A stretch of 64,000 bases of DNA, from contig MHII01000012.1 in assembly GCA_001817425.1 (NCBI GenBank), positions 77 through 64,076 on the forward strand, given 5' to 3'. Under the pieces are notes generated by a model, which was not told the origin of the DNA, did no database searches, and worked only from the letters and a program-made list of their open reading frames with translations. This DNA is from Candidatus Buchananbacteria bacterium RIFCSPHIGHO2_02_FULL_39_17. GTDB lineage: Bacteria > Patescibacteriota > Patescibacteriia > Buchananbacterales > UBA6539. Shown piece after piece: positions 2,714 through 61,656 of this stretch. The position numbers and the translations under genes are program-made. The first letter of the stretch is position 1; each line of letters begins with the position of its first letter.

Positions 2714-4969
2714 ATGGCTTTAATTTCTAAAAAAATTAGATTAAAATTTTTTTTATTTGTTTTTTTATTTCAATTTTTCGTGTTTTTTTATAATTCAGAT
2801 GTTTTGGCTAAAAATGAACAAATCGACTATCGTCTAGGCGAGGTTTTGTTAAAGTTTAAGGGCGATGAGGAGATCTATAAATTAAAATTTTCCGTCGAGA
2901 CTGACGTTGGGCAAATTATTAATCAATACACAAATTTCGGTGAAATTGAAAATATCAGCCCAAACTATTTAGTTAGGGCTACGGCTTTTCCTAATGACCC
3001 GGACTATTTGTTGCAGTGGTACTTAAATCCAATTAACGCGAAAGCGGCTTGGTCAAAAGCCTTGGTGGTCCGGGAACAGGAATTTAATAGTCGGCAGTCA
3101 GTCATTGCTGTTTTAGATAGCGGTGTTGATTTAAATCATCCAGATTTAAAAGGACAAATTTGGCGCAATAAAAAAGAAATCGCTAATGACCAAGTTGATA
3201 ATGATAATAATGGCTATACGGATGACATCACTGGTTGGGATTTTGTTGAATGGGATAATGATCCCAATCCATCTTTTACTTTCGGTTTTGATGAAAGTGC
3301 GATTAAGCATGGAACAATTGTCGCGAGTCTCGCCGCGGCGACCTCGCATAATAATCAGGGCATTGCCGGCGTTAGTTGGTTCAGCCAAATTATGCCCTTG
3401 CGCGTTTTAGACAGCAGTGGGGCTGGGGATATCTATACGGTTATTCAGGCGATTAATTATGCGGTTAGTAACGGCGCGGATATTATTAATATGAGTTTTA
3501 TTGGTAGCCATTTTGAAGCTAATTGGTTTTCGGCCATCAGAAATGCTTATAATAAAAATGTGTTGGTGGTGGCCGCGGCGGGTAATACTGATCCAGCGGT
3601 CAATGGCGTTAATCTTGATCTTCATAAGTATTATCCAGTTTGTTTTGACGGGGATAATGGTGAAAATTTTGTCATTGGCGTGGCGGCCGTAGGCAAGGAT
3701 CTAAAGAAATCAAGCTTTTCCAATTATGGCAGTTGTATTGACATTACGGCGCCAGGCGAGGATTTTTATGCGGCCCAGGTTTATAATCCTAAATTTAGCG
3801 GCTTTAGCAATTATTATGATGGCTATTGGTCCGGGACTTCACTGTCCGCGCCATTAGTCAGCGGTACCCTGGCTTTAATTAAGGCTTTGCGACCTTCTTT
3901 AACTGCCTCGCAAATCAGAGATTTTGTTTTTGAAGGTGCTTCTGATATTGATCAATACAATGCCGAATTTAAAAATAAATTGGGAGCGGGAATGCTTGAT
4001 GTGGCTAATGCAGTGGAAGTCACCTTGGGCAAAAGAGTGTCTAAAGAAAAGGGCGGTGAAGATAATTATATTTTGGTGGGCTTAGGTTCAGGATCTTTTC
4101 CGCAATTAAAGATTTTAAGAACTGATGGTTCAGTTTTTAAAGAATTTTACGCCTATAGTCCGACTTTTAACGGGGAAGTGAAAGTGGCGGCGGGCGATGT
4201 TAACGGTGATGGTCAAGATGAAGTGGTCACCGGAACCGGCAGTGGCGGCGGGCCTCATGTTCGGATTTTTAACATTGAAGGTCAGTTAATTTCCCAATTT
4301 TTTGCGGCTGATAAAAAATTGCGCGGTGGGATTAATATCGCCGTGGCTGACATCAATGGGGATAACATTGACGAAATTATTACTGGTGCGGGCAAGGGGA
4401 GCGAGCCAGAAGTTAAAATTTTTGACTCGCAAGGTAATCTTTTAAAAAAGTTTTTGGCTTATAACCAAACTTTTCGGGGCGGAGTTAAGGTTGCGGTCGC
4501 TGATTTTAACCATGACGGTAAGAACGATATTGTGACTGGGGCGGGCAGTGGCGGCGGGCCTCATGTTCGAGTTTTTAGTTCAGATGGCGAATTAATTTCC
4601 CAATTTTTTGCTTTTAATAAAAATTCTAGGGGTGGGGTTAATGTTGCCGTGGCTGACTTGCACGGTGACGGCCAGCCTGAAATTATTGCTGCGATTGAAA
4701 ATAATGCGGTGCCAGAAGTCAGGGTTTTTACTTATCTTGGTTCGCCGGCGGGCAGTTTTTTTGCCGCTAATCCGAATTCTTTAACCGGTGTTAATATTTC
4801 TGCCGGCGATGTTGACAATGACCGAATTGCCGAAGTTATTACCGGCTTAGGCGTTGGCGGCAATTCGGAAATTAAAATTTTTGATTTACAAGGGAAAACT
4901 AAATTTGAATTTTTTGCCCACACCTTAAATTATCTTGGCGGCGCTAGGACCGCTGTCTTGCGCTATTAA
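2714..4969 (+). CDS. Secreted subtilisin-like serine protease (peptidase S8) with C-terminal FG-GAP/VCBS-type repeats
   Basis: N-terminal signal/TM segment. Catalytic Asp (VLDSGVD), His (HGTIVASLAAA) and Ser (GTSLSAP) motifs. Five or more repeats of VADxNGDGxDEIxTGxGxGGGPHVRIF, typical FG-GAP. Confidence 0.8.
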   Translation: MALISKKIRLKFFLFVFLFQFFVFFYNSDVLAKNEQIDYRLGEVLLKFKGDEEIYKLKFSVETDVGQIINQYTNFGEIENISPNYLVRATAFPNDPDYLLQWYLNPINAKAAWSKALVVREQEFNSRQSVIAVLDSGVDLNHPDLKGQIWRNKKEIANDQVDNDNNGYTDDITGWDFVEWDNDPNPSFTFGFDESAIKHGTIVASLAAATSHNNQGIAGVSWFSQIMPLRVLDSSGAGDIYTVIQAINYAVSNGADIINMSFIGSHFEANWFSAIRNAYNKNVLVVAAAGNTDPAVNGVNLDLHKYYPVCFDGDNGENFVIGVAAVGKDLKKSSFSNYGSCIDITAPGEDFYAAQVYNPKFSGFSNYYDGYWSGTSLSAPLVSGTLALIKALRPSLTASQIRDFVFEGASDIDQYNAEFKNKLGAGMLDVANAVEVTLGKRVSKEKGGEDNYILVGLGSGSFPQLKILRTDGSVFKEFYAYSPTFNGEVKVAAGDVNGDGQDEVVTGTGSGGGPHVRIFNIEGQLISQFFAADKKLRGGINIAVADINGDNIDEIITGAGKGSEPEVKIFDSQGNLLKKFLAYNQTFRGGVKVAVADFNHDGKNDIVTGAGSGGGPHVRVFSSDGELISQFFAFNKNSRGGVNVAVADLHGDGQPEIIAAIENNAVPEVRVFTYLGSPAGSFFAANPNSLTGVNISAGDVDNDRIAEVITGLGVGGNSEIKIFDLQGKTKFEFFAHTLNYLGGARTAVLRY

Positions 4970-7296: not shown

Positions 7297-7679
7297 TTAT
7301 AAAAATAATTATTCTTTTGTTTGTTATTTTTGTTTTGTGGCGAACAACTTCTCGTTATTTAAGAGGCGATATCACGGTTCGCGAGTTGATGATTTGGGTT
7401 ATATTTTGGCTTTTAGTCGGTCTGGCCGTCGTTTTACCGCAAAAAACTGATATCATTGCTCAATGGCTGGGAGTCAGCCGCGGCGCTGATTTATTAGTTT
7501 ATTTGTCAATTATCGTTTTATTTTTTGTGGTTTTTAGAATTATTGTCAAATTGGAAAAGATTGATCAGGAGGTCACGAAAATAGTGAGGGAGGCAGCCTT
7601 AGAAAATGATAATAAATCCAAAGTTCAAAATCAAAATGTCAACTCAATGTCAAATGACAAAATTCAAAATAATATTTGA
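7293..7679 (+). CDS. Small membrane protein, DUF2304-like (GT2-associated)
   Basis: ~128 aa with 3 TM helices, 4-bp overlap with the upstream GT2. The GtrA-GT2-DUF2304 arrangement is common. Confidence 0.5.
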   Translation: MIIKIIILLFVIFVLWRTTSRYLRGDITVRELMIWVIFWLLVGLAVVLPQKTDIIAQWLGVSRGADLLVYLSIIVLFFVVFRIIVKLEKIDQEVTKIVREAALENDNKSKVQNQNVNSMSNDKIQNNI

Positions 7680-8791: not shown

Positions 8792-8896
8792 GAAATAAAT
8801 TTTGAATTTTGAAATTTGAATTTTGAATCAATTTTGAATAACCGAATTTTGAAAAATTAAGATATTAGAATTTGAATCGAAATTCAAAATTAAAAA

Positions 8897-9238
8897 TTAG
8901 ATTTTTTTTACCTCTCTTTCTACCCATTTCTCGTATTCCAGATTAGACTCGGTTTTCCAACCCTCAATTAATGGAATTTTATAAGGGTGGAGTTTTTTTA
9001 TTTCATTTTTAACTTTTTGCCAGTTTTCTTTTTTAGTTTTAAAAATCGCCGCGATTTCTTGGTCATTAACAATTTTGCCTTGCCACCAATAACTTGATTT
9101 AATTGGGAAAAAATTGGCGCAAGCAATCAATCGCTTTTTTAATAATACCGAAGCGATTTTTTTCGCGGTTTTTAAATTAGGAAAAGTAGCGTAAATATTA
9201 ATAATCATATTTATTTGATTTTTTCTACTTGTTGTCAT
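8897..9238 (-). CDS. cutA: Divalent-cation tolerance protein CutA
   Basis: ~113 aa. The pattern IINIYATFPNLKTAKKIASVLLKKRLIACANFFP...YWWQGKI matches the CutA1 family. Confidence 0.65.
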   Translation of the reverse strand: MTTSRKNQINMIINIYATFPNLKTAKKIASVLLKKRLIACANFFPIKSSYWWQGKIVNDQEIAAIFKTKKENWQKVKNEIKKLHPYKIPLIEGWKTESNLEYEKWVEREVKKI

Positions 9239-10561: not shown

Positions 10562-10711
10562 ATTTTTATTATCTTAACATATTAAATTTATCACTTTTAA
10601 ATCTAAAAGTCCAATTGATTTTTAAAAAGAAATTTGCTAAAATTACTATATTATTTTTGTTTTTACATGATAAAACCTACAAGCTACTTTCTACAAGCTA
10701 CGAGCTAAAAT

Positions 10712-11860
10712 ATGAGAATTGCCATTATTACCCCCACTTTTCCGTCGTATGCCGGCGGCATTGGCAAGGTCGCGGCGTTTAACGCGCGAGAACTGAAAAA
10801 GCTTGGCCATCAGGTCACGGTTTTTACTCCTGACTATGAACCGGTTAAAGAAGAATTTACTGATTTAGAAATTAAGCGCATTAAGCCGCTTTTTAAATAT
10901 GGTAATGCCGCTTTTATTCCGGCTTTGGGTAAAATGCTCAAAGGTTTTGATATTATTCATCTCCATTATCCATTTTTCGGCGCCGCCGAAATTATTTGGC
11001 TCCATAATTCAAAATTCAAAATTCAAAATTCAAAATTGATTCTACATTACCATATGGATGTAGTCGGGCGCGGATGGTTAAAATTAATTTTCAAATTTCA
11101 CAATCAATTTATCTTGCCTAAAATTGTTAAAGCCGCGGATAAAATCATTTTCACTTCATTGGATTATAGTAAAAATTCAAATTTGGCAAAATGGTTGAAA
11201 AATCAGCCGTCAAAATTTGTGGCAATCCCCAACGGCGTTGACAGCCAAAATTTTTTACCTCAACTAAAAAGTCAAACCTTGCTGGAAAAATACCAGATTA
11301 ATCCTAGCGATAAAATTATCCTTTTTGTCGGCGGTTTAGACCAGGCGCATTATTTCAAAGGCATTGAATATTTACTCCAAGCGGTTTCGCGCCTGCGCCA
11401 AACCGCTTATTTTTGGAAATTAATCATTGTCGGCGAAGGTGATTTAAAAAATTATTATTCTGATTACGCCAATCAGTTAGGGCTTGATAATGAAGTAATA
11501 TTTAGTGGTTATGCTCCGGACGAGGATTTACCCAATTATTATAACTTGGCTGATGTTTGCGTTTTGCCCTCCATTGACAAATCTGAAGCTTTTGGCTTAG
11601 CTTTAATTGAGGCGATGGCGTGCGGAAAACCGGTCGTGGCAACAGATTTGGCCGGCGTGCGAAGCGTGGTTGAAGACGGGGTTAACGGGCTTTTGGCCCA
11701 GCCGAAAAATGCCGCTGATTTGGCGGCAAAAATTAATTATTTATTAATTAATCCCGAAATTGCCCAAGAGTTTGGCCACAACGGCCGGAAAAAAGTGGAA
11801 GAAGAGTATGAGTGGGGGAGGATCGGGAGAAAGCTAGATGAATTATATAAGAGTTTATAA
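10712..11860 (+). CDS. Glycosyltransferase family 4
   Basis: C-terminal EAFGLALIEAMACGKPVVATDLAGVRSVVEDGVNGLL (GT4 E-X7-E region). Contains an in-frame (attcaaa)x4 heptamer tract at 11006-11036, encoding NSKFKIQNSK. Confidence 0.8.
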   Translation: MRIAIITPTFPSYAGGIGKVAAFNARELKKLGHQVTVFTPDYEPVKEEFTDLEIKRIKPLFKYGNAAFIPALGKMLKGFDIIHLHYPFFGAAEIIWLHNSKFKIQNSKLILHYHMDVVGRGWLKLIFKFHNQFILPKIVKAADKIIFTSLDYSKNSNLAKWLKNQPSKFVAIPNGVDSQNFLPQLKSQTLLEKYQINPSDKIILFVGGLDQAHYFKGIEYLLQAVSRLRQTAYFWKLIIVGEGDLKNYYSDYANQLGLDNEVIFSGYAPDEDLPNYYNLADVCVLPSIDKSEAFGLALIEAMACGKPVVATDLAGVRSVVEDGVNGLLAQPKNAADLAAKINYLLINPEIAQEFGHNGRKKVEEEYEWGRIGRKLDELYKSL

Positions 11861-11866
11861 AAATTT

Positions 11867-11961
11867 CCCTCTTAAGATAAGAGGGGAGAGGGGAGTTATG
11901 AGTGTAAGTTTTAAAAAATTAATAACCCCATCCACCTCCCCCTTAATTTAAGGGGGGAGAG
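11867..11961. mobile_element. MITE-like derivative (~95 bp) of the DUF559 element, with hairpin termini and no ORF
   Basis: The left end ccctcttaagataagaggggagaggggagttatgag and right end taaccccatccacctcccccttaatttaaggggggagag closely match the two ends of the DUF559 element at 61224-61656. Only ~20 bp lies between them here. Confidence 0.6.
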
Positions 11962-20341: not shown

Positions 20342-20428
20342 GTCAAAAATCAAAAATCAAAAGGCAAAAGTCAAAAGTTTAAGTCAAAATTCAAAAGCTG
20401 TAGTTTAATTACTTTTAACTTTTGAATT
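20342..20428. repeat. Partial copy of the caaaag-rich ~100-bp intergenic repeat that also flanks rmlA
   Basis: caaaaggcaaaagtcaaaag...acttttaacttttgaatt matches the start and end of the 22957-23059 arm. It ends ~6 bp before the HIT-gene ATG. Confidence 0.55.
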
Positions 20429-22098: not shown

Positions 22099-22953
22099 AT
22101 GGCCAATCAACGGAAAATCCTTATCCTTGGCGCAAACGGCATGCTGGGCCACGATCTGGCTGAAATTTTTTTTGATCAAAAACCAATTCTTTGGGATATG
22201 CCAAATCTTGATATTACTGATGAATTTGCGGTCAAACAAAAATTAGCTGATTTAATGCCTTCTTTAGTGATTAATGCCGCTGCCTATACTGACGTTGATG
22301 GTGCTCAAAATCAGCCAGATTTGGCGTTTAAGGTCAATGCCGACGCCATTGGCTACTTGGCAGTTGCCTGTCAGCAATTAGGGGCGATTTTGGTGCATTA
22401 CAGCACTGAATACGTTTTTTCCGGTAACAAGGATACTGGTTATCAAGAAGACGACAAAACTGATCCGTTAAATATTTATGGCCAGTCTAAAGCCAAAGGT
22501 GAAGAGATTTTAAAACAAAATTGTGAAATGTTTTATTTAATTCGTTCAAGCTGGCTTTACGGCCGTTCACCCCAAGTCGGCAAGCCGCGCGGCTTGAATT
22601 TCGTCCAAACTATGCTAAAATTGGCAGGTGAGGGTAAAGAGATTAATGTTGTTTCCGACCAGTTTGGCAAGCCGACTTATACTTTAGACTTAGCTAAAAA
22701 AACCCGGGAAATTATTGAAACTCAAAAGCCCTGCGGCATTTATCATGCGGTTAACGAAGGTGTTTGCAGCTGGTATGAATTTGCCAAAAAAATTTTTGAA
22801 ATAAAAAATATTTCCGCAAATTTAAATTCAATTAATTCAGATCAATATCCTTTGCCTACGCCACGGCCAAAATACAGCATTTTAGTTAACACCAAATTAG
22901 AGCCGTTGCGGAAGTGGGACGAGGCGTTGCGAGATTACCTACGGCAAAGTTAA
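22099..22953 (+). CDS. rmlD: dTDP-4-dehydrorhamnose reductase
   Basis: KILILGANGMLGHDL, YGQSKAKGEE, ~284 aa. Confidence 0.85.
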   Translation: MANQRKILILGANGMLGHDLAEIFFDQKPILWDMPNLDITDEFAVKQKLADLMPSLVINAAAYTDVDGAQNQPDLAFKVNADAIGYLAVACQQLGAILVHYSTEYVFSGNKDTGYQEDDKTDPLNIYGQSKAKGEEILKQNCEMFYLIRSSWLYGRSPQVGKPRGLNFVQTMLKLAGEGKEINVVSDQFGKPTYTLDLAKKTREIIETQKPCGIYHAVNEGVCSWYEFAKKIFEIKNISANLNSINSDQYPLPTPRPKYSILVNTKLEPLRKWDEALRDYLRQS

Positions 22954-22956
22954 AAG

Positions 22957-23059
22957 TCAAAAGGCAAAAGTCAAAATTGCAATTCAAAATTCAAAAGTAA
23001 AAAGTAATAATTTTGATTTTTAACTTGAACTTTTAATTTTTAACTTTTAACTTTTGAAT
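22957..23059. repeat. Left arm of the 103-bp inverted repeat enclosing rmlA
   Basis: Its reverse complement matches 23824-23926 at 102 of 103 positions. Built from caaaag/acttttaa units. Confidence 0.85.
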
Positions 23060-23064
23060 TTTTT

Positions 23065-23781
23065 ATGAAAGGCATAATTTTAGCCGGCGGGACCGGTTCG
23101 CGCTTGGATCCGCTGACTCGAGTCACCAATAAACATTTACTACCGATCTACGACCGGCCAATGATTTATTATCCGATTCAGACTTTAGTCAAAGCTGGCA
23201 TCACTGACATTATGATTGTTTCCGGCAAAGGCCATGCCGGGCAGTTTTTGGAATTACTTCAATCTGGTAAAGAATTGGGCGCGAAGTTTTCCTATGGCGT
23301 GCAAGAAGAAGCCGGCGGCATTGCCCAAGCCTTGGCCGTCTGCCAAGATTTTGCTGACAATGATAAAATTGTGGTAATGTTAGGCGATAATATTTTGCAA
23401 AATGATATTTCTAATGCCGTCAAAGATTTTGAAAAACAAGATAAGGGCTCAAAGATATTTTTAAAAGAAGTGGAAAATCCCAAATCTTTTGGCGTGGCGC
23501 AAATTGCCGGCGACAAAATCATTGAAATTGAAGAAAAACCAAAAAACCCCAAAACCAATTTAGCGGTTATTGGGGTTTATCTGTATGATAGTCAGGTTTG
23601 GCAAGTGATTAAAACTTTGAAACCTTCAGGGCGAGGCGAATTGGAAATCACTGATGTTAATAATTTTTACGTTAAAAAAGGGGAAATGACTTTTGAAATT
23701 TTGCGCGGCTGGTGGGGAGACGGAGGTGAGTCATTTGATAGTTTATTGGCGGCCGGGAATTTGGTTGCCAAGAAAAAATAA
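23065..23781 (+). CDS. rmlA: Glucose-1-phosphate thymidylyltransferase-like sugar-phosphate nucleotidyltransferase (short form)
   Basis: MKGIILAGGTGSRLDPLTRVTNKHLLPIYDRPMIYYPI is the nucleotidyltransferase signature. Adjacent to rmlB and rmlD. Confidence 0.7.
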   Translation: MKGIILAGGTGSRLDPLTRVTNKHLLPIYDRPMIYYPIQTLVKAGITDIMIVSGKGHAGQFLELLQSGKELGAKFSYGVQEEAGGIAQALAVCQDFADNDKIVVMLGDNILQNDISNAVKDFEKQDKGSKIFLKEVENPKSFGVAQIAGDKIIEIEEKPKNPKTNLAVIGVYLYDSQVWQVIKTLKPSGRGELEITDVNNFYVKKGEMTFEILRGWWGDGGESFDSLLAAGNLVAKKK

Positions 23782-23823
23782 TTTTTCAAGCACCAAATCC
23801 AAAATCACAAGCTCCAAATAATA

Positions 23824-23926
23824 ATTCAAAAGTTAAAAGTTAAAAATTAAAAGTTCAAGTTAAAAGTCAAAATTATTACTTTTTACTTTTGAATTTTGAA
23901 TTGCAATTTTGACTTTTGCCTTTTGA
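23824..23926. repeat. Right arm of the 103-bp inverted repeat enclosing rmlA
   Basis: Reverse complement of 22957-23059 with one mismatch. Confidence 0.85.
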
Positions 23927-23983
23927 ATTTTAACTTTGATGCTTATTTATAATTTGGAATTTATTTGAGATTTAATATTTCAA

Positions 23984-31477: not shown

Positions 31478-31497
31478 TGAAAAATAACTTCCTCTTT

Positions 31498-31545
31498 CTC
31501 CCCCTTAAATTAAGGGGGGGGGTGAGAGGGGGTTAAATTTCAAAA
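31498..31545. repeat. Hairpin element related to the DUF559-element termini
   Basis: ctcccccttaaattaaggggggg followed by gagagggggtta, cf. 11936-11959 and 61634-61656. Confidence 0.5.
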
Positions 31546-32595: not shown

Positions 32596-32645
32596 TAGAG
32601 ATAAAAATTAGCTTTTTAGCTTCCTTAGCTTTTTAGGTAAAAAAT

Positions 32646-32684
32646 CTACAAGCTACAAGCTACAAGCTACAAGCTACAAGCTAA
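32646..32684. repeat. Tandem heptamer (ctacaag)x5 immediately upstream of the pyrG start
   Basis: ctacaagctacaagctacaagctacaagctacaagcta ends 4 bp before the pyrG ATG. The same ctacaagct motif lies upstream of GT4 (10686-10705) and at the edges of the in-frame palindromic elements in murD and fpg. Confidence 0.8.
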
Positions 32685-32688
32685 AACT

Positions 32689-40398: not shown

Positions 40399-40856
40399 TA
40401 AAAATCAGAAATAGCTGAACTTAATTGGGTTGATTTTTCCGAGGTGCCAACTGTTGAGGGCCAAAAAACCGTTACCGTAATTTTTTTCAGTCCAGTATCG
40501 TTGGCGCTAACATTAAAATTACTGTCAAGATATTCAACAATTGTCTGTCTTTGAAAAGCGTAATAAAAATCAGTCGGATCACTTGATAATCTTTGTTTGG
40601 CTTCAATCGTGCCAGTGCTGATATTGTCGTAGCCTAGGCTGATGACTTCTTCAATTTTTGCCACGGCTAAATTAGAGGCGGTAGTTAATCTTTGGGCATC
40701 GCCGGTGATTTTCAAGCTTAAAGGGAAAATTTGAACCACGGCAAAAAGGCCAACCATTAAAATCATTGTGGCAATGGCCGCTTCAATAATGGTAAACCCC
40801 GCACTATGTTGGCGTAAGTTATTTTTGTCAATTTTTATAAATGATTTTTTAAACAT
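40398..40856 (-). CDS. Prepilin-type N-terminal cleavage/methylation domain protein (pseudopilin)
   Basis: RQHSAGFTIIEAAIATMILMVGLFAVVQIF. Confidence 0.65.
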   Translation of the reverse strand: MFKKSFIKIDKNNLRQHSAGFTIIEAAIATMILMVGLFAVVQIFPLSLKITGDAQRLTTASNLAVAKIEEVISLGYDNISTGTIEAKQRLSSDPTDFYYAFQRQTIVEYLDSNFNVSANDTGLKKITVTVFWPSTVGTSEKSTQLSSAISDF

Positions 40857-40922
40857 TACTATTTTTTTGATTATTCTTTATGAATTTTGGTATCTACTGA
40901 ATTAACGCCAACATAGTGCGGG
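40797..40922. repeat. Long-range inverted repeat around the start of prepilin gene 40398-40856
   Basis: ccccgcactatgttggcg (40797-40814, codes RQHSAG) and cgccaacatagtgcgggg (40905-40922) are an 18-bp perfect inverted repeat. The 90-bp spacer contains the ATG. Confidence 0.8.
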
Positions 40923-40936
40923 GTAAACCCTTGTTT

Positions 40937-41419
40937 TTAATCAATAACTTCAACATAGCCTGATGGTTTGATGTTTATCGTGGATATTTGACTTCTGGTG
41001 TTAGTCAAGGTAATTGAGCCGGTTTCCGCCACCCCGCCTGTCGGATTGAAACTGACTAAATCATTAGTCAGGCCAGAGATTTGACTGATGGAAACTTCAG
41101 TGTCTAAATTAACTTCTTTATTGACGTTACTGGTTTCCGAATTAACGATTTGATATTTTTTAGTTAGGGGAAAGAGTTTGAGCTGATAAATTTTTTGTTC
41201 CGTGACAGCTAATTGCTGGGTAAGCCGTAAATTGGTGGCTAAGACCCGAGCCTCACTTTTTAATTTGGTGTTTTTTTGGTAGTTGACAAAAAGCGGGGCG
41301 CTAATAATTGAAATAAAAGCGATAATACCTAAAACCGCAGCAAGCTCAGTAATCGTAAACCCCGCACTTTGTTGGCGTAGGTAATTTTTGTTTATTCTTT
41401 TGAAAATATTTTTAACTAT
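40937..41419 (-). CDS. Prepilin-type protein; reading frame intact but no ATG start (ATA at the aligned start position)
   Basis: Manual minus-strand translation gives IVKNIFKRINKNYLRQQSAGFTITELAAVLGIIAFISIISAPLF...GYVEVID*. It aligns codon for codon with MFKKSFIKIDKNNLRQHSAGFT of the neighbouring gene. It is absent from the ORF track because it lacks ATG. Confidence 0.45.
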   Translation of the reverse strand: MVKNIFKRINKNYLRQQSAGFTITELAAVLGIIAFISIISAPLFVNYQKNTKLKSEARVLATNLRLTQQLAVTEQKIYQLKLFPLTKKYQIVNSETSNVNKEVNLDTEVSISQISGLTNDLVSFNPTGGVAETGSITLTNTRSQISTINIKPSGYVEVID

Positions 41420-41486
41420 TTATCATTTATTAATTTATTTTTTGAACCTAAAATTTTGAGGAATAAATGCCAACATAGTGCGGGGT
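41360..41486. repeat. Long-range inverted repeat around the start of the prepilin reading frame 40937-41419
   Basis: ccccgcactttgttggc (41360-41376) against gccaacatagtgcgggg (41470-41486), 16 of 17 complementary. Spacer ~90 bp. Confidence 0.7.
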
Positions 41487-49596: not shown

Positions 49597-51111
49597 ATGA
49601 ATTTCACGGGTAGAAAAGTGACGGTCATGGGTTTAGGGCTCCACGGTGGTGGAGTCTCTTGCGCTAACTGGCTGATAAAGCACGGCGCTAAAGTGACGGT
49701 GACTGATTTGAAAACCAAAGAAGAGCTTAAGCCATCTTTAGATAAGTTAGCGATCAAACGATCAAGCGATCAAACGATCAAGTTAGTGCTTGGATATCAC
49801 CGTGAAAATGATTTTAGAAATGCTGATCTAATTGTTCAAAACCCGGGTGTGCCAAGGGAATCAAAATATTTGGCAATTGCCAAAAAATCTGGCGTGCCAA
49901 TTGAAAATGAAGCCAGCCTTTTTTTTAAATATTGTCCGGCAAAAATTATCGGCGTCACAGGAACGCGTGGCAAATCAACCACGTCAAGCTTAATTTATCA
50001 ACTTCTAAAAGTTAAAAGCTATCCCGACGTAAAGTCGGGATCCCGACCGAAGCGTCGGGACAAACTACAAGCTCGTAAAGTCTGGCTGGCCGGACTGCCC
50101 CAAAAGCCGATGTTAGAAATTTTAGATCAAATTAAGCCTAATGATTTGGTGGTTTTAGAGCTTTCCAGCTGGCAATTAGAAATTTTAGGCGAACAAAAAT
50201 TAAGTCCGCAAATCGCGGTTCTGACTAATATTTATCCCGATCATTTAAATCGCTATTTGGGTATGGCTGATTACGTTAAAGCTAAAATCAACATTTTTCA
50301 GTGGCAAAATAAAAATGATTTTGTCGTTTTGAATTTAGATAATTTTGAAACAAAAAAACTTGGCGGAAAAGTCAGGGCCAAAAGATTTTTGTTTTCCAAA
50401 AAATATTTTGCCGAACAAAACGGCAGCTTTATTAAAAATAAACAAATTTTTTTCCGAAAAGACGGCAAAACTTACAAACTTACTAACTTATCAACTTATA
50501 AACTTATTGGCGAGCACAATTTAGAAAATTTTTTGGCCGCGATCACGGTTGCCGGAATTTTTGGTGTTAAACCAAAAGAAATAACGGCGGCTTTGAATAA
50601 GTTTAAGGGTTTGCCGGGGCGAATTGAGTTAATCAGGGAAAAAAACGGCGTAAAATATATTAATGACACAACCGCGACCACGCCTGATGCCACCATGGCC
50701 GCTCTAAAAATATTTTTAGAGCGGCAAATCCCAAATTCTAAATCCCAAACCCTAAGTAAATTCAAAATTCAAAATTCAAGATTCAAAATTATTCTGATAG
50801 CTGGAGGAGCGTCAAAAAATATTCCTATTCAAAAATATCAAGAGTTAGCCGCAATGATAAAAAAAACTTGTAAGGCCGTGATTCTATTTGAGGGGGAAGG
50901 GAGCGATCAGATGGCCAAAGATTTAAAGGCCATAAAATTTAGAGAATTAGTGACCAATGTTTTAGGGATGTCTTCAGCGGTTGGCATTGCTAATAATTTT
51001 TCGCAAACAGGCGATATCATTTTACTCTCTCCGTCTTCAGCTTCGTTTGGTTTGTTTATTAATGAATTTGATCAGGGTGATCAATTTAATAAGATAGTTT
51101 CTGATATTTAA
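49597..51111 (+). CDS. murD: UDP-N-acetylmuramoylalanine--D-glutamate ligase
   Basis: KVTVMGLGLHGGGVSCANWL, the P-loop GVTGTRGKSTTSSL, and the Mur ligase C-domain. Three in-frame repeat insertions: 49745-49778, 50011-50071 and 50757-50793. Confidence 0.85.
   Translation: MNFTGRKVTVMGLGLHGGGVSCANWLIKHGAKVTVTDLKTKEELKPSLDKLAIKRSSDQTIKLVLGYHRENDFRNADLIVQNPGVPRESKYLAIAKKSGVPIENEASLFFKYCPAKIIGVTGTRGKSTTSSLIYQLLKVKSYPDVKSGSRPKRRDKLQARKVWLAGLPQKPMLEILDQIKPNDLVVLELSSWQLEILGEQKLSPQIAVLTNIYPDHLNRYLGMADYVKAKINIFQWQNKNDFVVLNLDNFETKKLGGKVRAKRFLFSKKYFAEQNGSFIKNKQIFFRKDGKTYKLTNLSTYKLIGEHNLENFLAAITVAGIFGVKPKEITAALNKFKGLPGRIELIREKNGVKYINDTTATTPDATMAALKIFLERQIPNSKSQTLSKFKIQNSRFKIILIAGGASKNIPIQKYQELAAMIKKTCKAVILFEGEGSDQMAKDLKAIKFRELVTNVLGMSSAVGIANNFSQTGDIILLSPSSASFGLFINEFDQGDQFNKIVSDI
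50011..50071. mobile_element. GC-rich double-hairpin element, family 1, inserted in frame in murD
   Basis: aaaagctatcccgacgtaaagtcgggatcccgaccgaagcgtcgggacaaactacaagct has two hairpins sharing the tcccgac/gtcggga stem and ctacaagct at its edges. It encodes KSYPDVKSGSRPKRRDKLQA, which is absent from canonical MurD. Confidence 0.7.
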
Positions 51112-53442: not shown

Positions 53443-53628
53443 TCAAATTAAACGGGAAGAAATAGAAGATAACTAAAATAGATTAAAAAATTCCAAATTC
53501 TAAATCCTAAATTATAAATAATATTAAAATTCAAATTTACAAATTTAAAAAAGTTTTATTCGTTTGGATTTTAGTTATTGGGATTTATTTAGGATTTAGT
53601 GCTTAGAATTTAGGATTTATCTTTATTT
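53443..53628. repeat. AT-rich palindromic element (ctaaatcc-unit inverted repeats) upstream of the patatin gene
   Basis: aattctaaatcctaaa...tttaggatttagtgcttagaatttaggattta. Shares its 3' ~30 bp with the element at 54538-54678. Both end ~5 bp before an ATG. Confidence 0.7.
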
Positions 53629-54537
53629 ATGTCTGACGACCAGTTAAAGAATAATAATTTAAAGCAAGAAAATATTCAAATTAAGAGAAAAACAGTCGGT
53701 TTAGCCGTTGGCGGCGGGTTTATCCGTTCAACGGCGGCCATTGGCGCCATTGAGGTCTTGCAGGAAAATAATATTCCGATTGATTTGGTTTCTGGTTGCA
53801 GTTCCGGGGCGGCGGTGGCCAGCGCCTATGCCGCTGGGACTCTAAGGCAATTTAAAGAGAGATTAATCCGCGGTCCGCGGCGAGAATATTGGCGAATTAT
53901 TTTTGAGCCAACCGTTCCGAAAGAGGGCTTACTGAAGGGAGAGCGCAATCGTAGATTTTTTGAAGAATTTGTCGGCGATAAAAATTTTTCTGATTTGCAA
54001 AAAAAGCTTTTAATTTTGACTACGGATTTAATCAGTATGAAAGAGGTGGTAGTTGATTCCGGACGAGTCGGACGGGCGATTCAGGCCGCGACTTCGGTTC
54101 CCGGAGTTTTTGTTCCAGTGAAGGATGGTAGTCGAATTTTAGTTGATGGCGGTAATTTTAATATTATCCCCTCAAAAATTTTATATCAAAAAGGCGTTGA
54201 TTATGTAATTGCCATTCATACGGCCCAACTGCCAAATCTAATTACTCGTTTTTTGTCAAACTTTAAACATCTTCATAAAAGAGACCAGATAATTGAACAG
54301 AAAAAAATTAAAAATCTGGATTTAAATATTTTGCAAATTGTTTTGCGAGCTGTAAAAATTTCCAGTGGTCAAATTAAGAATTTTTATTATTCAAATTTTC
54401 CTTACGATGCCTTGATTATTCCAGATATCACCGGGATAAAGCGCTGGCATATTGGCCGAGTCAACTATTTAGTTAATCAGGGTCGGAAAGCGGCTGAAGC
54501 GATGCTGCCGAAAATAAAAAGCGATTTAGGATTATAA
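53629..54537 (+). CDS. Patatin-like phospholipase
   Basis: Oxyanion GGGFIRS, nucleophile GCSSG (GxSxG), and the catalytic Asp in VDGGN. Confidence 0.8.
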   Translation: MSDDQLKNNNLKQENIQIKRKTVGLAVGGGFIRSTAAIGAIEVLQENNIPIDLVSGCSSGAAVASAYAAGTLRQFKERLIRGPRREYWRIIFEPTVPKEGLLKGERNRRFFEEFVGDKNFSDLQKKLLILTTDLISMKEVVVDSGRVGRAIQAATSVPGVFVPVKDGSRILVDGGNFNIIPSKILYQKGVDYVIAIHTAQLPNLITRFLSNFKHLHKRDQIIEQKKIKNLDLNILQIVLRAVKISSGQIKNFYYSNFPYDALIIPDITGIKRWHIGRVNYLVNQGRKAAEAMLPKIKSDLGL

Positions 54538-54678
54538 CTTAAAATTCTAAATTCTAAATCCGAAATCCTAAACAAATTCCAAATTCTAAACTCCAATTTT
54601 TTAAACAGTTTGTAATTTGTGATTTTGGATATTGTGATTTACTTAGAATTTAGTGCTTAGAATTTAGGATTTAATATT
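54538..54678. repeat. AT-rich palindromic element upstream of murC, paralogous to 53443-53628
   Basis: aaattctaaattctaaatccgaaatcctaaa...cttagaatttagtgcttagaatttaggattta. Confidence 0.7.
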
Positions 54679-56076
54679 ATGTTTGTTGATTTGGCAAAAA
54701 TTAAAAGGATCTATTTTATTGGTATTAAAGGGGTGGCAATGACTGGTTTGGCGGTGATTTGCCAAAAAATGGGTAAAGAAATTTTTGGTTCTGATGTGGC
54801 AGAAAAATTTATTACGGATAAAATTTTAGAAAAAAATCAGATTAAATCTTTTGAAAATTTTTCGATAACTAATTTAAATTGCCAGCCGGATTTAGTGGTT
54901 TTGGGCACATCTTTTAGTGATGAAAACCCTGAAGTGATTGAGGCAAAAAAGAGGAAAATAAAAATAATTTTTGATTCAGAGCTTCGGGGGCTATTAAGCC
55001 AAAAAAAAGAAACTATTGCGGTTGCGGGCATTCACGGCAAGACAACGACTACCGCCATGCTGGCTTATTTATTTTCAAAAGCCGGACTAAAACCGAGTTA
55101 TTTAATTGGTACCGGCGCGGTGCCTGATTTAGGCGGCAATTCAGATTGGGGGGTGGGGGATTATTTTATTGTTGAGGGCGATGAATATAGCCGAAGCAAA
55201 TACGATACAACGCCGAAATTTTTAGACTTGGAGCCAAAAATCAGCGTGATTACTAATATTGAATGGGAGCATGTTGATATTTATCCTGATTTGTCAGCAG
55301 TTGAAAAAGCTTTCACCGCCTTAGTTGAAAAAACTAAAGATTTAATTGTTGTCTGCGGCGATTGGCCTTCAGTCAAAAAAATTATTAAAAATAGCGATAA
55401 AAAAGTTGTGACTTATGGCTTGGGGGCGGATAATCTCTGGCAAGCGTTTGATCTTAAGCAACAATCTGACGGCACAATTTTTAAAATTAGAAAAGAAGGC
55501 GTTCGCTTAGGGGAGTTTAAAATTAAACTTTTTGGAGAGCATAATGCTTTAAACGCTCTTTCAGCCATTATTGTTGGTTTAGAGTTGGGCCTAGAGTTAG
55601 AACAAATTAAGCAGATTTTGAAAGATTTTTCCGGAGCGGAAAGGCGTTTTGATGTTTTAGAAAATAAGGGTGTCATTTTCGTTGATGATTATGGTCATCA
55701 CCCAAGTGAAATAAAAACCACGCTTAAAGCCGTTCGCCAACGTTATCCTAAAAATCAAATTTGGTGCGTATTTCAGCCCCACATGGCATCACGAACAAAA
55801 GCATTCTTAGCTGAATTCGCCCGGAGTTTTAGCGAAGTTGATCAAGTGATTTTTGCTGATATTTTTGCTTCAGCCAGAGAAAAATCTTTAGCGATTACGG
55901 CCAGAGATTTAACCAATGAAACCAAAAAATACCAGACTTCAGCGATTTACGGCGGCAGTTTGGATGAAATTACCAAATATTTAAAAAATAATTTAAAGCC
56001 GGGAATGATTTTAGTCACCATGGGCGCGGGGGATGTGTATAAAATTAGAGATAAACTAATTAATTTTAAATTTTGA
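54679..56076 (+). CDS. murC: UDP-N-acetylmuramate--L-alanine ligase
   Basis: IYFIGIKGVAMTGLAV, the P-loop GIHGKTTTTAMLA, and the DDYGHHP region. Confidence 0.9.
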   Translation: MFVDLAKIKRIYFIGIKGVAMTGLAVICQKMGKEIFGSDVAEKFITDKILEKNQIKSFENFSITNLNCQPDLVVLGTSFSDENPEVIEAKKRKIKIIFDSELRGLLSQKKETIAVAGIHGKTTTTAMLAYLFSKAGLKPSYLIGTGAVPDLGGNSDWGVGDYFIVEGDEYSRSKYDTTPKFLDLEPKISVITNIEWEHVDIYPDLSAVEKAFTALVEKTKDLIVVCGDWPSVKKIIKNSDKKVVTYGLGADNLWQAFDLKQQSDGTIFKIRKEGVRLGEFKIKLFGEHNALNALSAIIVGLELGLELEQIKQILKDFSGAERRFDVLENKGVIFVDDYGHHPSEIKTTLKAVRQRYPKNQIWCVFQPHMASRTKAFLAEFARSFSEVDQVIFADIFASAREKSLAITARDLTNETKKYQTSAIYGGSLDEITKYLKNNLKPGMILVTMGAGDVYKIRDKLINFKF

Positions 56077-56176
56077 AATTCGAATTTTGATTCAATATCT
56101 TAATATTTTAATTTTTAAAAATTCAGATATTCAAAATTGATTCAAAATTCAAAATTAAAAATTCAGATTTTTACGT

Positions 56177-60951: not shown

Positions 60952-61249
60952 TATGGAAAATTTAGAAGAGAGAATCCAAAAAATTGAAGAGCGCAATCTG
61001 CGGGTGGAAGCCGATAAAACTTGGGAACAGAGCTGGACACGACGCGCTTTATTAGCGATTTTTAGCTATGTTGCCGTTGGGGCATATCTTCAGGCGATTC
61101 AAATCCCGCGGCCGTGGATTAACGCCATTGTGCCAGCCGCGGCGTTTATGATTCAGACCTTAACCTTGCCGTTTTTCAAAAAACTTTGGCTAAAATTTTT
61201 TTCTAAAAATGATTTTTTAAATCCCCCTCTTAAAGGTAAGAGGGGTTAG
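60941..61249 (+). CDS. Small hypothetical membrane protein
   Basis: ~100 aa with 2 TM helices. Overlaps the secA stop. Its last codons run into the left hairpin of the DUF559 element. Confidence 0.3.
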   Translation: MENNMENLEERIQKIEERNLRVEADKTWEQSWTRRALLAIFSYVAVGAYLQAIQIPRPWINAIVPAAAFMIQTLTLPFFKKLWLKFFSKNDFLNPPLKGKRG

Positions 61250-61656
61250 GGGAGTTATGAAGTATAATTATCATTATAATAACCATAAATTAAAAACTTT
61301 AAGACGAAACTTACGACAGAACCAAACTGATGCCAAAAAATTAATTTGGTCAAAACTTAGGAATAAACAATTAAATGATTTGAAATTTTATAGACAATAC
61401 AGTATTGGCTCGTATATTTTAGATTTTTATTGTCCTAAAAAGAGATTAGCGATAGAGATTGACGGCGGACAGCATAACGAAACAATTAATCTAAAAAAAG
61501 ATAATGTGCGATCAGAATATTTAAAACATCAGGACGTTAAGGTTATAAGATTTTAGAATAATGATATTATAAATAATTTAGAAGGAGTATTTGAAAAAAT
61601 TAAAGAAGCAGTATCGTTAATAACCCCCTCCATCTCCCCCTTATATTAAGGGGGAG
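61224..61656 (+). mobile_element. Mini mobile element with hairpin termini carrying a DUF559 (Vsr-like endonuclease-fold) gene
   Basis: The left end cccctcttaaaggtaagaggggttaggggagttATG and right end taaccccctccatctcccccttatattaagggggag are palindromic. The same two ends occur back to back at 11867-11961 without the ORF. Confidence 0.6.
61257..61649 (+). pseudogene. DUF559 endonuclease-domain gene interrupted by an in-frame TAG at the conserved RFW motif
   Basis: YRQYSIGSYILDFYCPKKRLAIEIDGGQHNE...DVKVIRF*NNDIINNLEGVFEKIKEAVSL. DUF559 proteins normally read RFWN followed by a tail, so TAG replaces the Trp codon. Confidence 0.55.

Follow-up and report, generated by a model that had tools for sequence, protein, structure and literature searches.

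Work on the short repeats known as BoxC or PIT elements reportedly goes back to Bachellier in the 1990s and to Hoyne and Maher in 2000. Holder et al. 2015 (PMC4666352), who treat them under the further name TM_ECO, give the consensus as CCCTCNCCC N3-6 GGGNGAGGG N3 GGGNGAGGG, with TTA in loop 2 of type A and CCG in loop 2 of type B, describe them as frequently forming inverted A+B doublets, and count 3610 of them in 262 proteobacterial genomes. The E. coli sequence forms a triplex in vitro, as seen by circular dichroism and nuclear magnetic resonance, and the repeats are tied to local genome variability, being present or absent among E. coli strains (PMC4666352). Found in E. coli since the 1990s, widespread, and hot spots of genome variability, they have been given neither a function nor a mobilising enzyme: transposases and integrases were never found near them, no associated gene was reported, and the paper mentions neither an endonuclease nor DUF559 (PMC4666352). 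Here we consider a 64,000-nucleotide stretch of Candidatus Buchananbacteria bacterium RIFCSPHIGHO2_02_FULL_39_17 (contig MHII01000012.1, positions 77 to 64,076 of the forward strand; hereafter the window), in which a decayed gene of the DUF559 nuclease family is set between two repeats that resemble these in layout.

The nuclease has described relatives of its own. Vsr and DUF559 stand in one Pfam grouping (PMC3424549), members of the Vsr family can be true repair enzymes, and Caulobacter VsrA has a DUF559 domain (PMC12907096). The homing endonuclease I-Bth0305I is a homodimer that cuts a pseudopalindrome beside its own insertion site (PMC3239194), and Milman et al. include 'DUF559 domain-containing protein' in their list of families over-represented at predicted programmed inversions, as the inverted repeats that flank the gene here would lead one to expect. 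Both the nuclease family and the repeat class have been described before; we found no paper joining DUF559 and triplex or BoxC repeats in a literature that took in few subscription journals. On balance, and with some reserve, we read the region as a decayed copy of a compact selfish unit, in which a DUF559 nuclease of ~120 amino acids (aa) with triplex-type ends would be copied, in the manner of homing, among dispersed repeats.

The full copy (61224-61656, + strand) is only ~430 bp in size, and consists of one DUF559 open reading frame (ORF), the sole ORF inside, set between two GC-rich hairpin ends in an AT-rich window (36.7% GC). Each end, left (L) and right (R), combines a hairpin with a third segment in mirror image of one hairpin arm, which is the layout of an intrastrand triplex: in the L end GGGGAG-TTA is the mirror of TAA-GAGGGG, and in the R end TAA-CCCCCTC is the mirror of CTCCCCC-TTA. 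Both ends fit the triplex-motif layout - pyrimidine arm, loop (1-6), purine arm, loop (1-6), purine third segment - with 8-10 canonical triads (G.G-C, A.A-T or T.A-T). Folded as single-stranded DNA, the hairpins in the window range from -8.6 kcal/mol (z = -2.4, the L end) to -11.3 kcal/mol (z = -4.3, the R end), and the L end is 70% identical to the reverse complement of the R end, so that the two are imperfect inverted repeats. The motif CCCCYTW..WARGGGG occurs at three window sites against 0.03 expected, a count reached by 0 of 100 shuffles. Gene and ends run into one another: the final A of the L-end segment GGGGAGTTA is the A of the DUF559 start ATG, and the natural stop TAA (61647-61649) lies inside the R hairpin, which an AT separates from the R-end third segment TAACCCCCTCC. 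Rfam yielded zero families at gathering thresholds over the whole window and, near the element, chance-level matches only at E<=10; neither an Rfam intron nor an intein was found at the element itself.

How close are these ends to the published repeats? Like BoxC/PIT/TM_ECO, they have a pyrimidine arm, a loop, a purine arm, a loop 2 of 2-4 nt (often TTA) and a mirroring purine third segment, and like them they are intergenic and multi-copy (three sites in the 64 kb), with an inverted doublet, the mini copy described below, laid out as the published A+B doublets are. The BoxC doublet between hrpB and mrcB of E. coli, for instance, has the same architecture, with 16 nt between L end and R end. 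The ends of proteobacterial DUF559 units match the TM_ECO consensus (loci L062 and L071, for example) or nearly do so (L057, L060, L065 and L078), and a BoxC found in 1441 E. coli genomes shares 90% identity, over 48 nt, with the R end of a Methylophilaceae unit; a proteobacterial DUF559 unit within E. coli itself was sought and rejected, the matches being confined to the BoxC part. The window ends do not match the consensus and are another sequence variant (CCCCTCTTA.. / ..GGGGAGTTA with TAA/TTA), and, unlike the published repeats, for which no gene is reported, they frame a nuclease gene. Since layout and doublets are shared with BoxC and the consensus differs, the window ends are, going by their sequence, a variant of the known BoxC/PIT/TM_ECO class.

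The association of gene and ends extends well beyond this genome. We surveyed 80 DUF559 loci in GTDB genomes spread over many phyla (Patescibacteria, Thermodesulfobacteriota, Nitrospirota, Chloroflexi, Proteobacteria and others), and a hairpin with a perfect homopyrimidine/homopurine (Py/Pu) stem of >=7 bp lies within 150 nt upstream of the gene in 74/80 and downstream in 66/80. Under the strict pattern of hairpin plus third segment, the figures are 53/80 and 44/80, against a background of 57 and 59 such patterns in 625 kb of flanks (both strands), which amounts to about 100-fold enrichment at DUF559. Perfect mirror third segments number 67 upstream and 86 downstream, direct repeats 13 and 13, and the mirror frequency of 21-27% falls to 4-7% when the pairing of arm and flank is shuffled. 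The mirror relation covaries over at least six types of arm and third segment, namely AAGAGGGG/GGGGAGTTA, AAGGGGGAG/GAGGGGGTTA, AAGAGGAGG/GGAGGAGTTA, AAGGGGGG/GGGGGGTTA, AAAGAGAGGG/GGGTGAGTTA and GGGAGAGGG/GGGTGAGGG. The merging of gene and ends recurs as well: the ORF starts at the ATG of GTTATG in 22/80 loci and stops at the TAA of TAACYYY in 12/80, the pseudopalindrome GGGGAGTTA | TAACCCCTCC has the ORF at its centre, and the termini of the longer homologues (N-terminal PPLKLRGG.. and ..EGVRGSY, C-terminal ITPPNLPLxKG..) are translations of end DNA. Of the pairs of hairpin arms, 12.6% are identical when both come from one locus and 2.7% when they come from different loci, which points to propagation or homogenisation within genomes.

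Two variations on this architecture deserve mention. In seven loci (L011, L024, L030, L052, L058, L064 and L070), (G)AGTTATGA occurs 2-4 times between L end and ORF at intervals of 10-40 nt, as if the inner end had been reiterated. On plasmid pAQ6 of Picosynechococcus sp. PCC 7002 (locus L265, 190-900), the DUF559 gene of a cultured cyanobacterium is framed on either side by yet another variant, in which the hairpins CCCCCA..TGGGGG and CCCCGA..CGGGG each precede a GGGGGC segment. DUF559 showed no enrichment on plasmids, where only 45 records held a relative.

Seen from the repeats, the picture is reversed. A search of metagenome and viral collections that used only the L-end motif, without reference to the gene, recovered it 201 times on 170 contigs: DUF559 comes next in 4 cases, another Py/Pu hairpin within 140 nt in 31, and neither of the two in 155. 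GTTATG continues 116 of 196 such L ends (59%), and the ORFs that open at this ATG are mostly shorter than 40 codons; third segments on both sides, as at 31.5 kb in the window, mark 23 of 197 end matches, and in 40 units an R-type hairpin stands directly upstream. DUF559 is encoded anywhere on 10 of 120 metagenome loci. The viral part (IMG/VR contigs L208-L257) holds 68 exact L-end motifs on 50 contigs, with at most three per contig. Mini copies with the same inner spacer in differing flanks were seen (L112, L119, L122 and L132), and some minis keep ORF fragments (the window copy, L101 and L136); matches to ORF remnants in solo copies were no commoner than in controls. The pattern is that nearly every DUF559 gene of the clade is framed by repeats and most repeats are gene-less, i.e. 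few autonomous and many ORF-less copies, a ratio that a gene living as a parasite on a repeat family would explain just as well. Repeats at unrelated genes without DUF559, which the earlier note on this DNA had named as evidence against an element, are indeed what we see at 197 of the 201 end matches; approached from the gene, however, the flanking by ends is strong throughout the survey.

The signs of mobility are indirect, and foremost among them are whole units that have entered coding sequence. In Proteobacteria they lie in frame within large genes: HsdM (3 loci), HsdR (1), MmeI/Eco57I-like methyltransferases (2), an N6_N4 methylase (1) and an FtsJ-like methyltransferase (1). The host is a restriction-modification (R-M) or DNA-methyltransferase gene in 7/8 of these loci (L057, L060, L062, L065, L067, L071, L072 and L078); extra solo repeat units are also found in frame in the same large host genes, where the ends are translated as PSPSGRGxGEG or PLPLGEGRGEG, and a solo unit of L065 is missing at the equivalent place in L062 and L067. 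The HsdM protein of L062 aligns with PDB 3khk over residues 34-463 and 625-660 and, because 3khk is continuous across the site, the 161 aa in between (L end, DUF559 and R ends) are an insertion. HsdM is interrupted at one common site in L062, L065 and L067, at which 3khk is uninterrupted, and the inserts are mostly better conserved than their hosts: 87% identity between the DUF559 inserts of L062 and L065 against 56% and 50% for the HsdM hosts, and, in the other two HsdM pairs, 76% against 54/49% and 76% against 71/75%. The HsdR insert of L060 is 83% identical to the HsdM insert of L065. Among loci with relatives of the small ORF that follows secA in the window, L260 has an intact DUF559 unit between a DUF218 gene and this ORF, where L262 and L263 have a lone R-type unit only, and in L258 the element is missing on the downstream side of the ORF; since L262 retains the R-type unit, deletion and insertion are indistinguishable between L260 and L262. 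DUF559 relatives, of which one search returned at least 2226, are patchy across phyla, with 54-67% identity whatever the phylum, and diverged copies share a genome (P0009 and P0016 on one contig; L034 with L061 and L046 with L069). Among the loci compared, no second gene regularly accompanies the unit.

The protein itself, with the window's stop read as W, matches Pfam DUF559 (PF04480) at E=3e-34 and 117.5 bits against a cutoff of 20.6, matches the NCBIfam DUF559 equivalog model below its equivalog cutoff, and finds PDB 3hrl by sequence profile at E 5e-28. For the fold we relied on the predicted model of the closest homologue, P0001 (pLDDT 89), whose best match is the DUF559 structure 3hrl and whose second is the catalytic domain of I-Bth0305I (3r3p; E 7e-4, TM 0.64/0.78); sequence similarity to the latter is weak (E 0.006). 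I-Bth0305I is hence the closest characterised structural relative of this model, in line with the suggestion of the earlier note that the nuclease might be homing-endonuclease-like. The likeness to such EDxHD/Vsr-like homing endonucleases (PMC3239194, PMC2677866) includes the nuclease fold, the position of the gene at the centre of a pseudopalindrome, and the common site in diverged HsdM genes, with an insert clearly better conserved than its host in two of the three pairs. There are differences too: the DUF559 unit has no intron or intein, its ~120 aa lack the extra DNA-binding domains of the multidomain I-Bth0305I, and it would presumably target repeats scattered through the genome, not a single conserved host gene. 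E. coli Vsr shares superfamily and core motifs and is a distant fold match (rank 13, TM 0.44, against the P0001 model); the window copy has no adjacent dcm-type partner gene, and repair of T:G mismatches is not indicated. PADLOC placed the protein in no defence system and gave weak local matches only, to nuclease domains of larger proteins.

In the window the gene is broken. Of the core residues, D56, E67, D69, H73 and R98 are kept and W100 has become TAG, in frame at 61554-61556, in place of the Trp of the RFWN motif that is invariant in alignments of 18 and of 30 homologues. Six strain-level contigs, recognised by an identical neighbouring DAHP synthase, all carry the element; the TAG is present in 6/6, and a 1-nt deletion near 61451 adds a frameshift in 4/6. 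A database variant, P0241, is 93% identical to the small ORF after secA and runs straight into the DUF559 residues WSKLRNKQ... (window ~61190-61350), joining the two near codon 31 with the L end lost; some members of the population must accordingly have lost the L end together with some 30 codons, with AAAAAA(C/T)T..TTGG microhomologies as the probable deletion endpoints. Given the stop, the frameshift and the variant, the window copy is a fixed pseudogene in decay; with the nuclease dead in this genome, the two ORF-less copies are likewise inert and all three are relics.

The two other copies belong to the same repeat family, that at 11.87 kb being an ORF-less L+R doublet and that at 31.5 kb a single unit (Table 1). 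The L end of the mini copy is 84% identical to that of the full copy and starts 6 nt past the stop of the upstream GT4 ORF; its R end is 88% identical and finishes 2 nt ahead of the ATG of the next GT4 ORF, and 25 nt separate GTTA from TAAC. The 3' part of its interior matches within the last 45 nt of the DUF559 ORF at 13/14 positions, and the score of the retained piece, TTTTAAAAAATTAA, is reached by 3/5000 random 25-mers and 7/5000 shuffles (p~0.001). The single unit at 31485-31535 is 80% identical to the full-copy R end, has a purine segment on its 3' side also, and occupies a 67-nt gap between two ORFs. The L end of the full copy contributes ~9 terminal codons (NPPLKGKRG) and the stop codon of the small ORF after secA, whose 13 homologues stop about 10 residues sooner; relatives of this ORF are all from Patescibacteria.

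Much of what the earlier note had claimed for the window stands: the three copies at the sites it named, GC-rich hairpins at both ends of the ORF, the TAG in place of the conserved Trp, and the decay of the resident copy. Some of its other claims needed amendment. By taking the ends for plain hairpins it overlooked the mirror-symmetric third segment and with it the BoxC/PIT/TM_ECO class. The first codons that it held to be retained in the mini copy are not significant beyond the ATG in the same random-sequence test as passed by the last codons, and the copies, which it placed exactly at codons, mostly fill short intergenic gaps, with the stop of the small ORF as the true instance.

How, then, might such a unit spread? 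In the scheme that we favour, the nuclease, probably as a dimer, would recognise and cut the junction GGGGAGTTA|TAACCCCTCC of ORF-less doublets, or else a structure extruded by the ends; repair templated on an ORF-bearing copy, with the ~35-bp conserved ends as homology, would copy the gene in; and decay and deletion would regenerate ORF-less copies, the whole amounting to homing among dispersed repeats. The anatomy of the unit, its association with the repeats, the insertions and the decay of this copy are observed, and cleavage, its site and the route of repair are what we infer here. A broader proposal, which we put forward as tentative and at somewhat less than an even chance, is that DUF559 could be the missing partner of the BoxC/PIT/TM triplex repeats, the two together making up an unrecognised class of selfish element whose minimal Vsr-fold nuclease would cut pseudo-palindromic, triplex-prone doublets and be copied into them, in an intergenic form with its own stop and start codons, such as that of the window, and in an in-frame form that prefers R-M genes.

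Several observations weigh against this scheme. Ends of ~35 bp would offer recombinational repair rather little homology. Spacers between L and R ends vary from 7 to 53 nt and are therefore a poor fit to one fixed homing site, ORF remnants occur in just 2 of the 9 mini interiors of the unbiased sample that are long enough to be testable, and DUF559 is encoded on 0/50 of the viral contigs that carry the end motif. Comparison of L258, L260, L262 and L263 gave no clean pair of occupied and empty sites with exact boundaries, and no target-site duplication is evident at the three window copies or between L260 and L262, few flanks having been examined. One DUF559 protein, P0120, is identical in a single RF-1/VanW context in 10/10 places returned from 24 contigs and gives no hint of a recent move. 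In E. coli K-12 there are 23 BoxC units, yet the sole DUF559 gene seen there is ycjD, with a degenerate 3' hairpin only. Finally, Holder et al. saw no triplex in vivo (PMC4666352). The earlier note had spoken of a mobile element with a non-autonomous derivative and had looked to empty sites and target-site duplications for confirmation. The recurring unit of ORF and two ends is found across phyla and ORF-less derivatives exist in the window and elsewhere, as it expected; the duplications did not appear, and neither did an empty site for the window locus, which is occupied in every strain contig (6/6), the next relatives of the DAHP synthase gene being only 68% identical and too distant for such a comparison.

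The gene ycjD merits a word of its own. It is present in 3378/5426 E. coli genomes and absent from 38% of complete genomes, and its degenerate hairpin led us to reject it as a model of the full element. In K-12 (locus L087, 5250-5420, minus strand) some 50 nt of the ycjD 3' end are found a second time just downstream of the gene, past the degenerate BoxC-like hairpin. TM_ECO counts in E. coli span 1 to 30. Strains of the K-12, B and B1 groups have 19-30 units; at the fabI locus O157:H7 (10-11 units) and APEC O1 (2 units) lack ycjD. Lower counts in the lineages without ycjD are suggestive and phylogenetically confounded, and the difference of APEC O1 at ycjD is a larger replacement and not an element-sized indel.

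Would the nuclease rather serve as a transposase of sorts, or serve the host? DUF559 might cleave the folded ends in single-stranded DNA (compare TnpA of IS200/IS605 and the RAYT of REPINs) and mobilise ORF-less doublets in trans. The ends are imperfect terminal inverted repeats that fold as single strands, each autonomous copy is accompanied by many ORF-less ones, mini families share a spacer in different flanks, and units occur in many unrelated genes as well as in intergenic gaps, all of which would agree with transposition. Against it, the few flanks at hand show no target-site duplication, no second gene regularly stands beside the unit, and the TnsA-type match (1t0f) to the P0001 model is weak. 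TnsA, a transposon nuclease of the PD-(D/E)XK fold, requires TnsB, and we know of no strand-transfer chemistry in a ~120-aa PD-(D/E)XK hydrolase; it is because such a protein has no known joining chemistry that we consider this explanation unlikely. We think it about as improbable that DUF559 serves the host as a structure-specific nuclease that repairs or processes triplex- or hairpin-forming repeats, with its flanks as autoregulatory, operator-like sites and with repeats that spread by other means. Repair enzymes of the Vsr family and the DUF559 domain of Caulobacter VsrA (PMC12907096) give this idea a precedent, the stable residence of P0120 at one locus and the wide occurrence of ycjD without intact ends accord with it, and the fewer TM_ECO units of O157:H7 and APEC O1 fit any model of a protein that maintains repeats. 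A host function sits poorly, however, with frequent pseudogenisation and deletion (the window included), with the patchy spread at even identity across phyla, with several diverged copies in one genome (P0009/P0016, L034/L061, L046/L069), with the in-frame invasion of R-M genes by inserts mostly better conserved than their hosts, and with ORF boundaries merged with the ends.

The remaining alternative, which we hold to be very improbable, is that the GC-rich units are generic signals of gene boundaries (terminators, ribosome-binding sites or mRNA stabilisers) that adjoin DUF559 by coincidence. Indeed, 98% of unbiased end matches have no adjoining DUF559, and the units fill intergenic gaps and provide neighbours with stop codons, GGAG and ATG. 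The enrichment of the strict patterns at DUF559, on both sides and in fixed orientation, nevertheless largely excludes an incidental association. A reading as terminators was rejected for the window, as no T tract follows the stems and the ends are not among the sites called terminator-like; PIT elements have neither promoter nor terminator activity in E. coli (cited in PMC4666352), and proteobacterial ends are translated within host proteins.

Other known systems share parts of the architecture. In REP/REPIN-RAYT, as Nunvar in 2010 and Bertels and Rainey in 2011 are said to have described, a RAYT gene is flanked by palindromic repeats that are scattered genome-wide; RAYTs belong to the HUH/Y1 enzymes, and their genes are as a rule present once per genome and passed on vertically. 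Here too, a nuclease gene is framed by dispersed palindromic repeats, often in inverted doublets, with few genes for many repeats; the DUF559 protein, however, is a hydrolase of the PD-(D/E)XK kind whose gene is frequently multi-copy, frequently in decay and common to different phyla, and its repeats have the triplex-type third segment. Miniature inverted-repeat transposable elements and their parent insertion sequences likewise comprise full and ORF-less copies with common ends (84-88% identical in the window, where the mini keeps a 3' ORF remnant), whereas the DUF559 unit encodes no DDE, serine, tyrosine or HUH transposase and showed no target-site duplication. Rickettsia palindromic elements, which to our knowledge are gene-less and have no nuclease partner, resemble the proteobacterial solo and DUF559 units that lie in frame in coding genes and are translated (e.g. 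as PSPSGRGxGEG); the TTA/TAA ends of the window differ in holding stop codons, and all three window copies are intergenic.

What would follow if DUF559 and these repeats do form one selfish unit? DUF559 is among the largest uncharacterised nuclease families, and it would gain a candidate substrate; the origin and turnover of repeats that occur in hundreds of bacterial genomes would gain a testable explanation. GC-rich peptide tails (PLxKGG, PSPSGRGxGEG) in annotated proteins would be explained, and a Vsr-fold nuclease acting with non-B-DNA ends would possibly represent a new mode of moving DNA.

Table 1. Features of the full copy, the neighbouring small ORF, the mini copy and the single unit (positions in the window)
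Feature	Position	Strand	Basis
L-end hairpin (pyrimidine arm-loop-purine arm), CCCCTCTTA-AAGG-TAAGAGGGG	61224..61245	+	fold and survey of relatives
L-end loop 2, TTA	61246-61248	+	
L-end third segment GGGGAGTTA, mirrors purine arm TAAGAGGGG	61249..61257	+	
DUF559 (Vsr-like PD-(D/E)XK nuclease) pseudogene	61257..61649	+	Pfam profile, PDB profile match
R-end third segment TAACCCCCTCC, mirrors pyrimidine arm CTCCCCCTTA	61621..61631	+	
R-end hairpin, CTCCCCCTTA-TAT-TAAGGGGGAG	61634..61656	+	repeat family D16, fold
Small membrane-protein ORF 3' of secA	60953..61249	+	13 homologues compared
Mini copy, L end: hairpin CCCTCTTA-AGA-TAAGAGGG, AGA, GGGGAGTTA	11867..11898	+	alignment to full copy
Mini copy, interior; with the A of 11898, ATGAGTGTAAGTTTTAAAAAATTAA	11899..11922	+	
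Mini copy, R end: TAACCCCATCC and hairpin CTCCCCCTTAA..TTAAGGGGGGAG	11923..11959	+	alignment to full copy
Single unit, third segment on either side of the hairpin: TAACTTCCTC, hairpin CTCCCCCTTAA..TTAAGGGGG, GAGAGGGGGTTA	31485..31535	+	families D16, I17

The window holds other repeats besides. AT-rich repeats of the (A)AATTCAAAA / TTTTGAATTT type occupy many intergenic regions on both strands (families D1, D3, D4, D6, D7 and D11), at 7606-7676, 8794-8907, 10966-11056, 20346-20397, 22946-23070, 23788-23937, 50726-50809, 53488-53632, 54541-54686 and 56055-56172; they are a second class, unrelated to the GC-rich ends. A 119-nt inverted repeat (22945-23063 and 23820-23938, 97% complementary), whose arms consist of low-complexity units of the AAAAGT/TCAAAA type, surrounds an ORF of 238 aa that resembles nucleotidyltransferases (23065-23781). 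The tandem heptamer (CTACAAG)n lies at 32633-32686 and 10671-10710 (family D15). Diverged direct repeats in 4134-4896, one of 229 nt and another, with spacings of 153 and 306 nt, of 71 nt (families D2 and D9), appear from their sequence to be repeated units inside coding sequence, and a 97-nt direct repeat, 74% identical, is found at 40783-40879 and 41346-41442, 563 nt apart (family D13).

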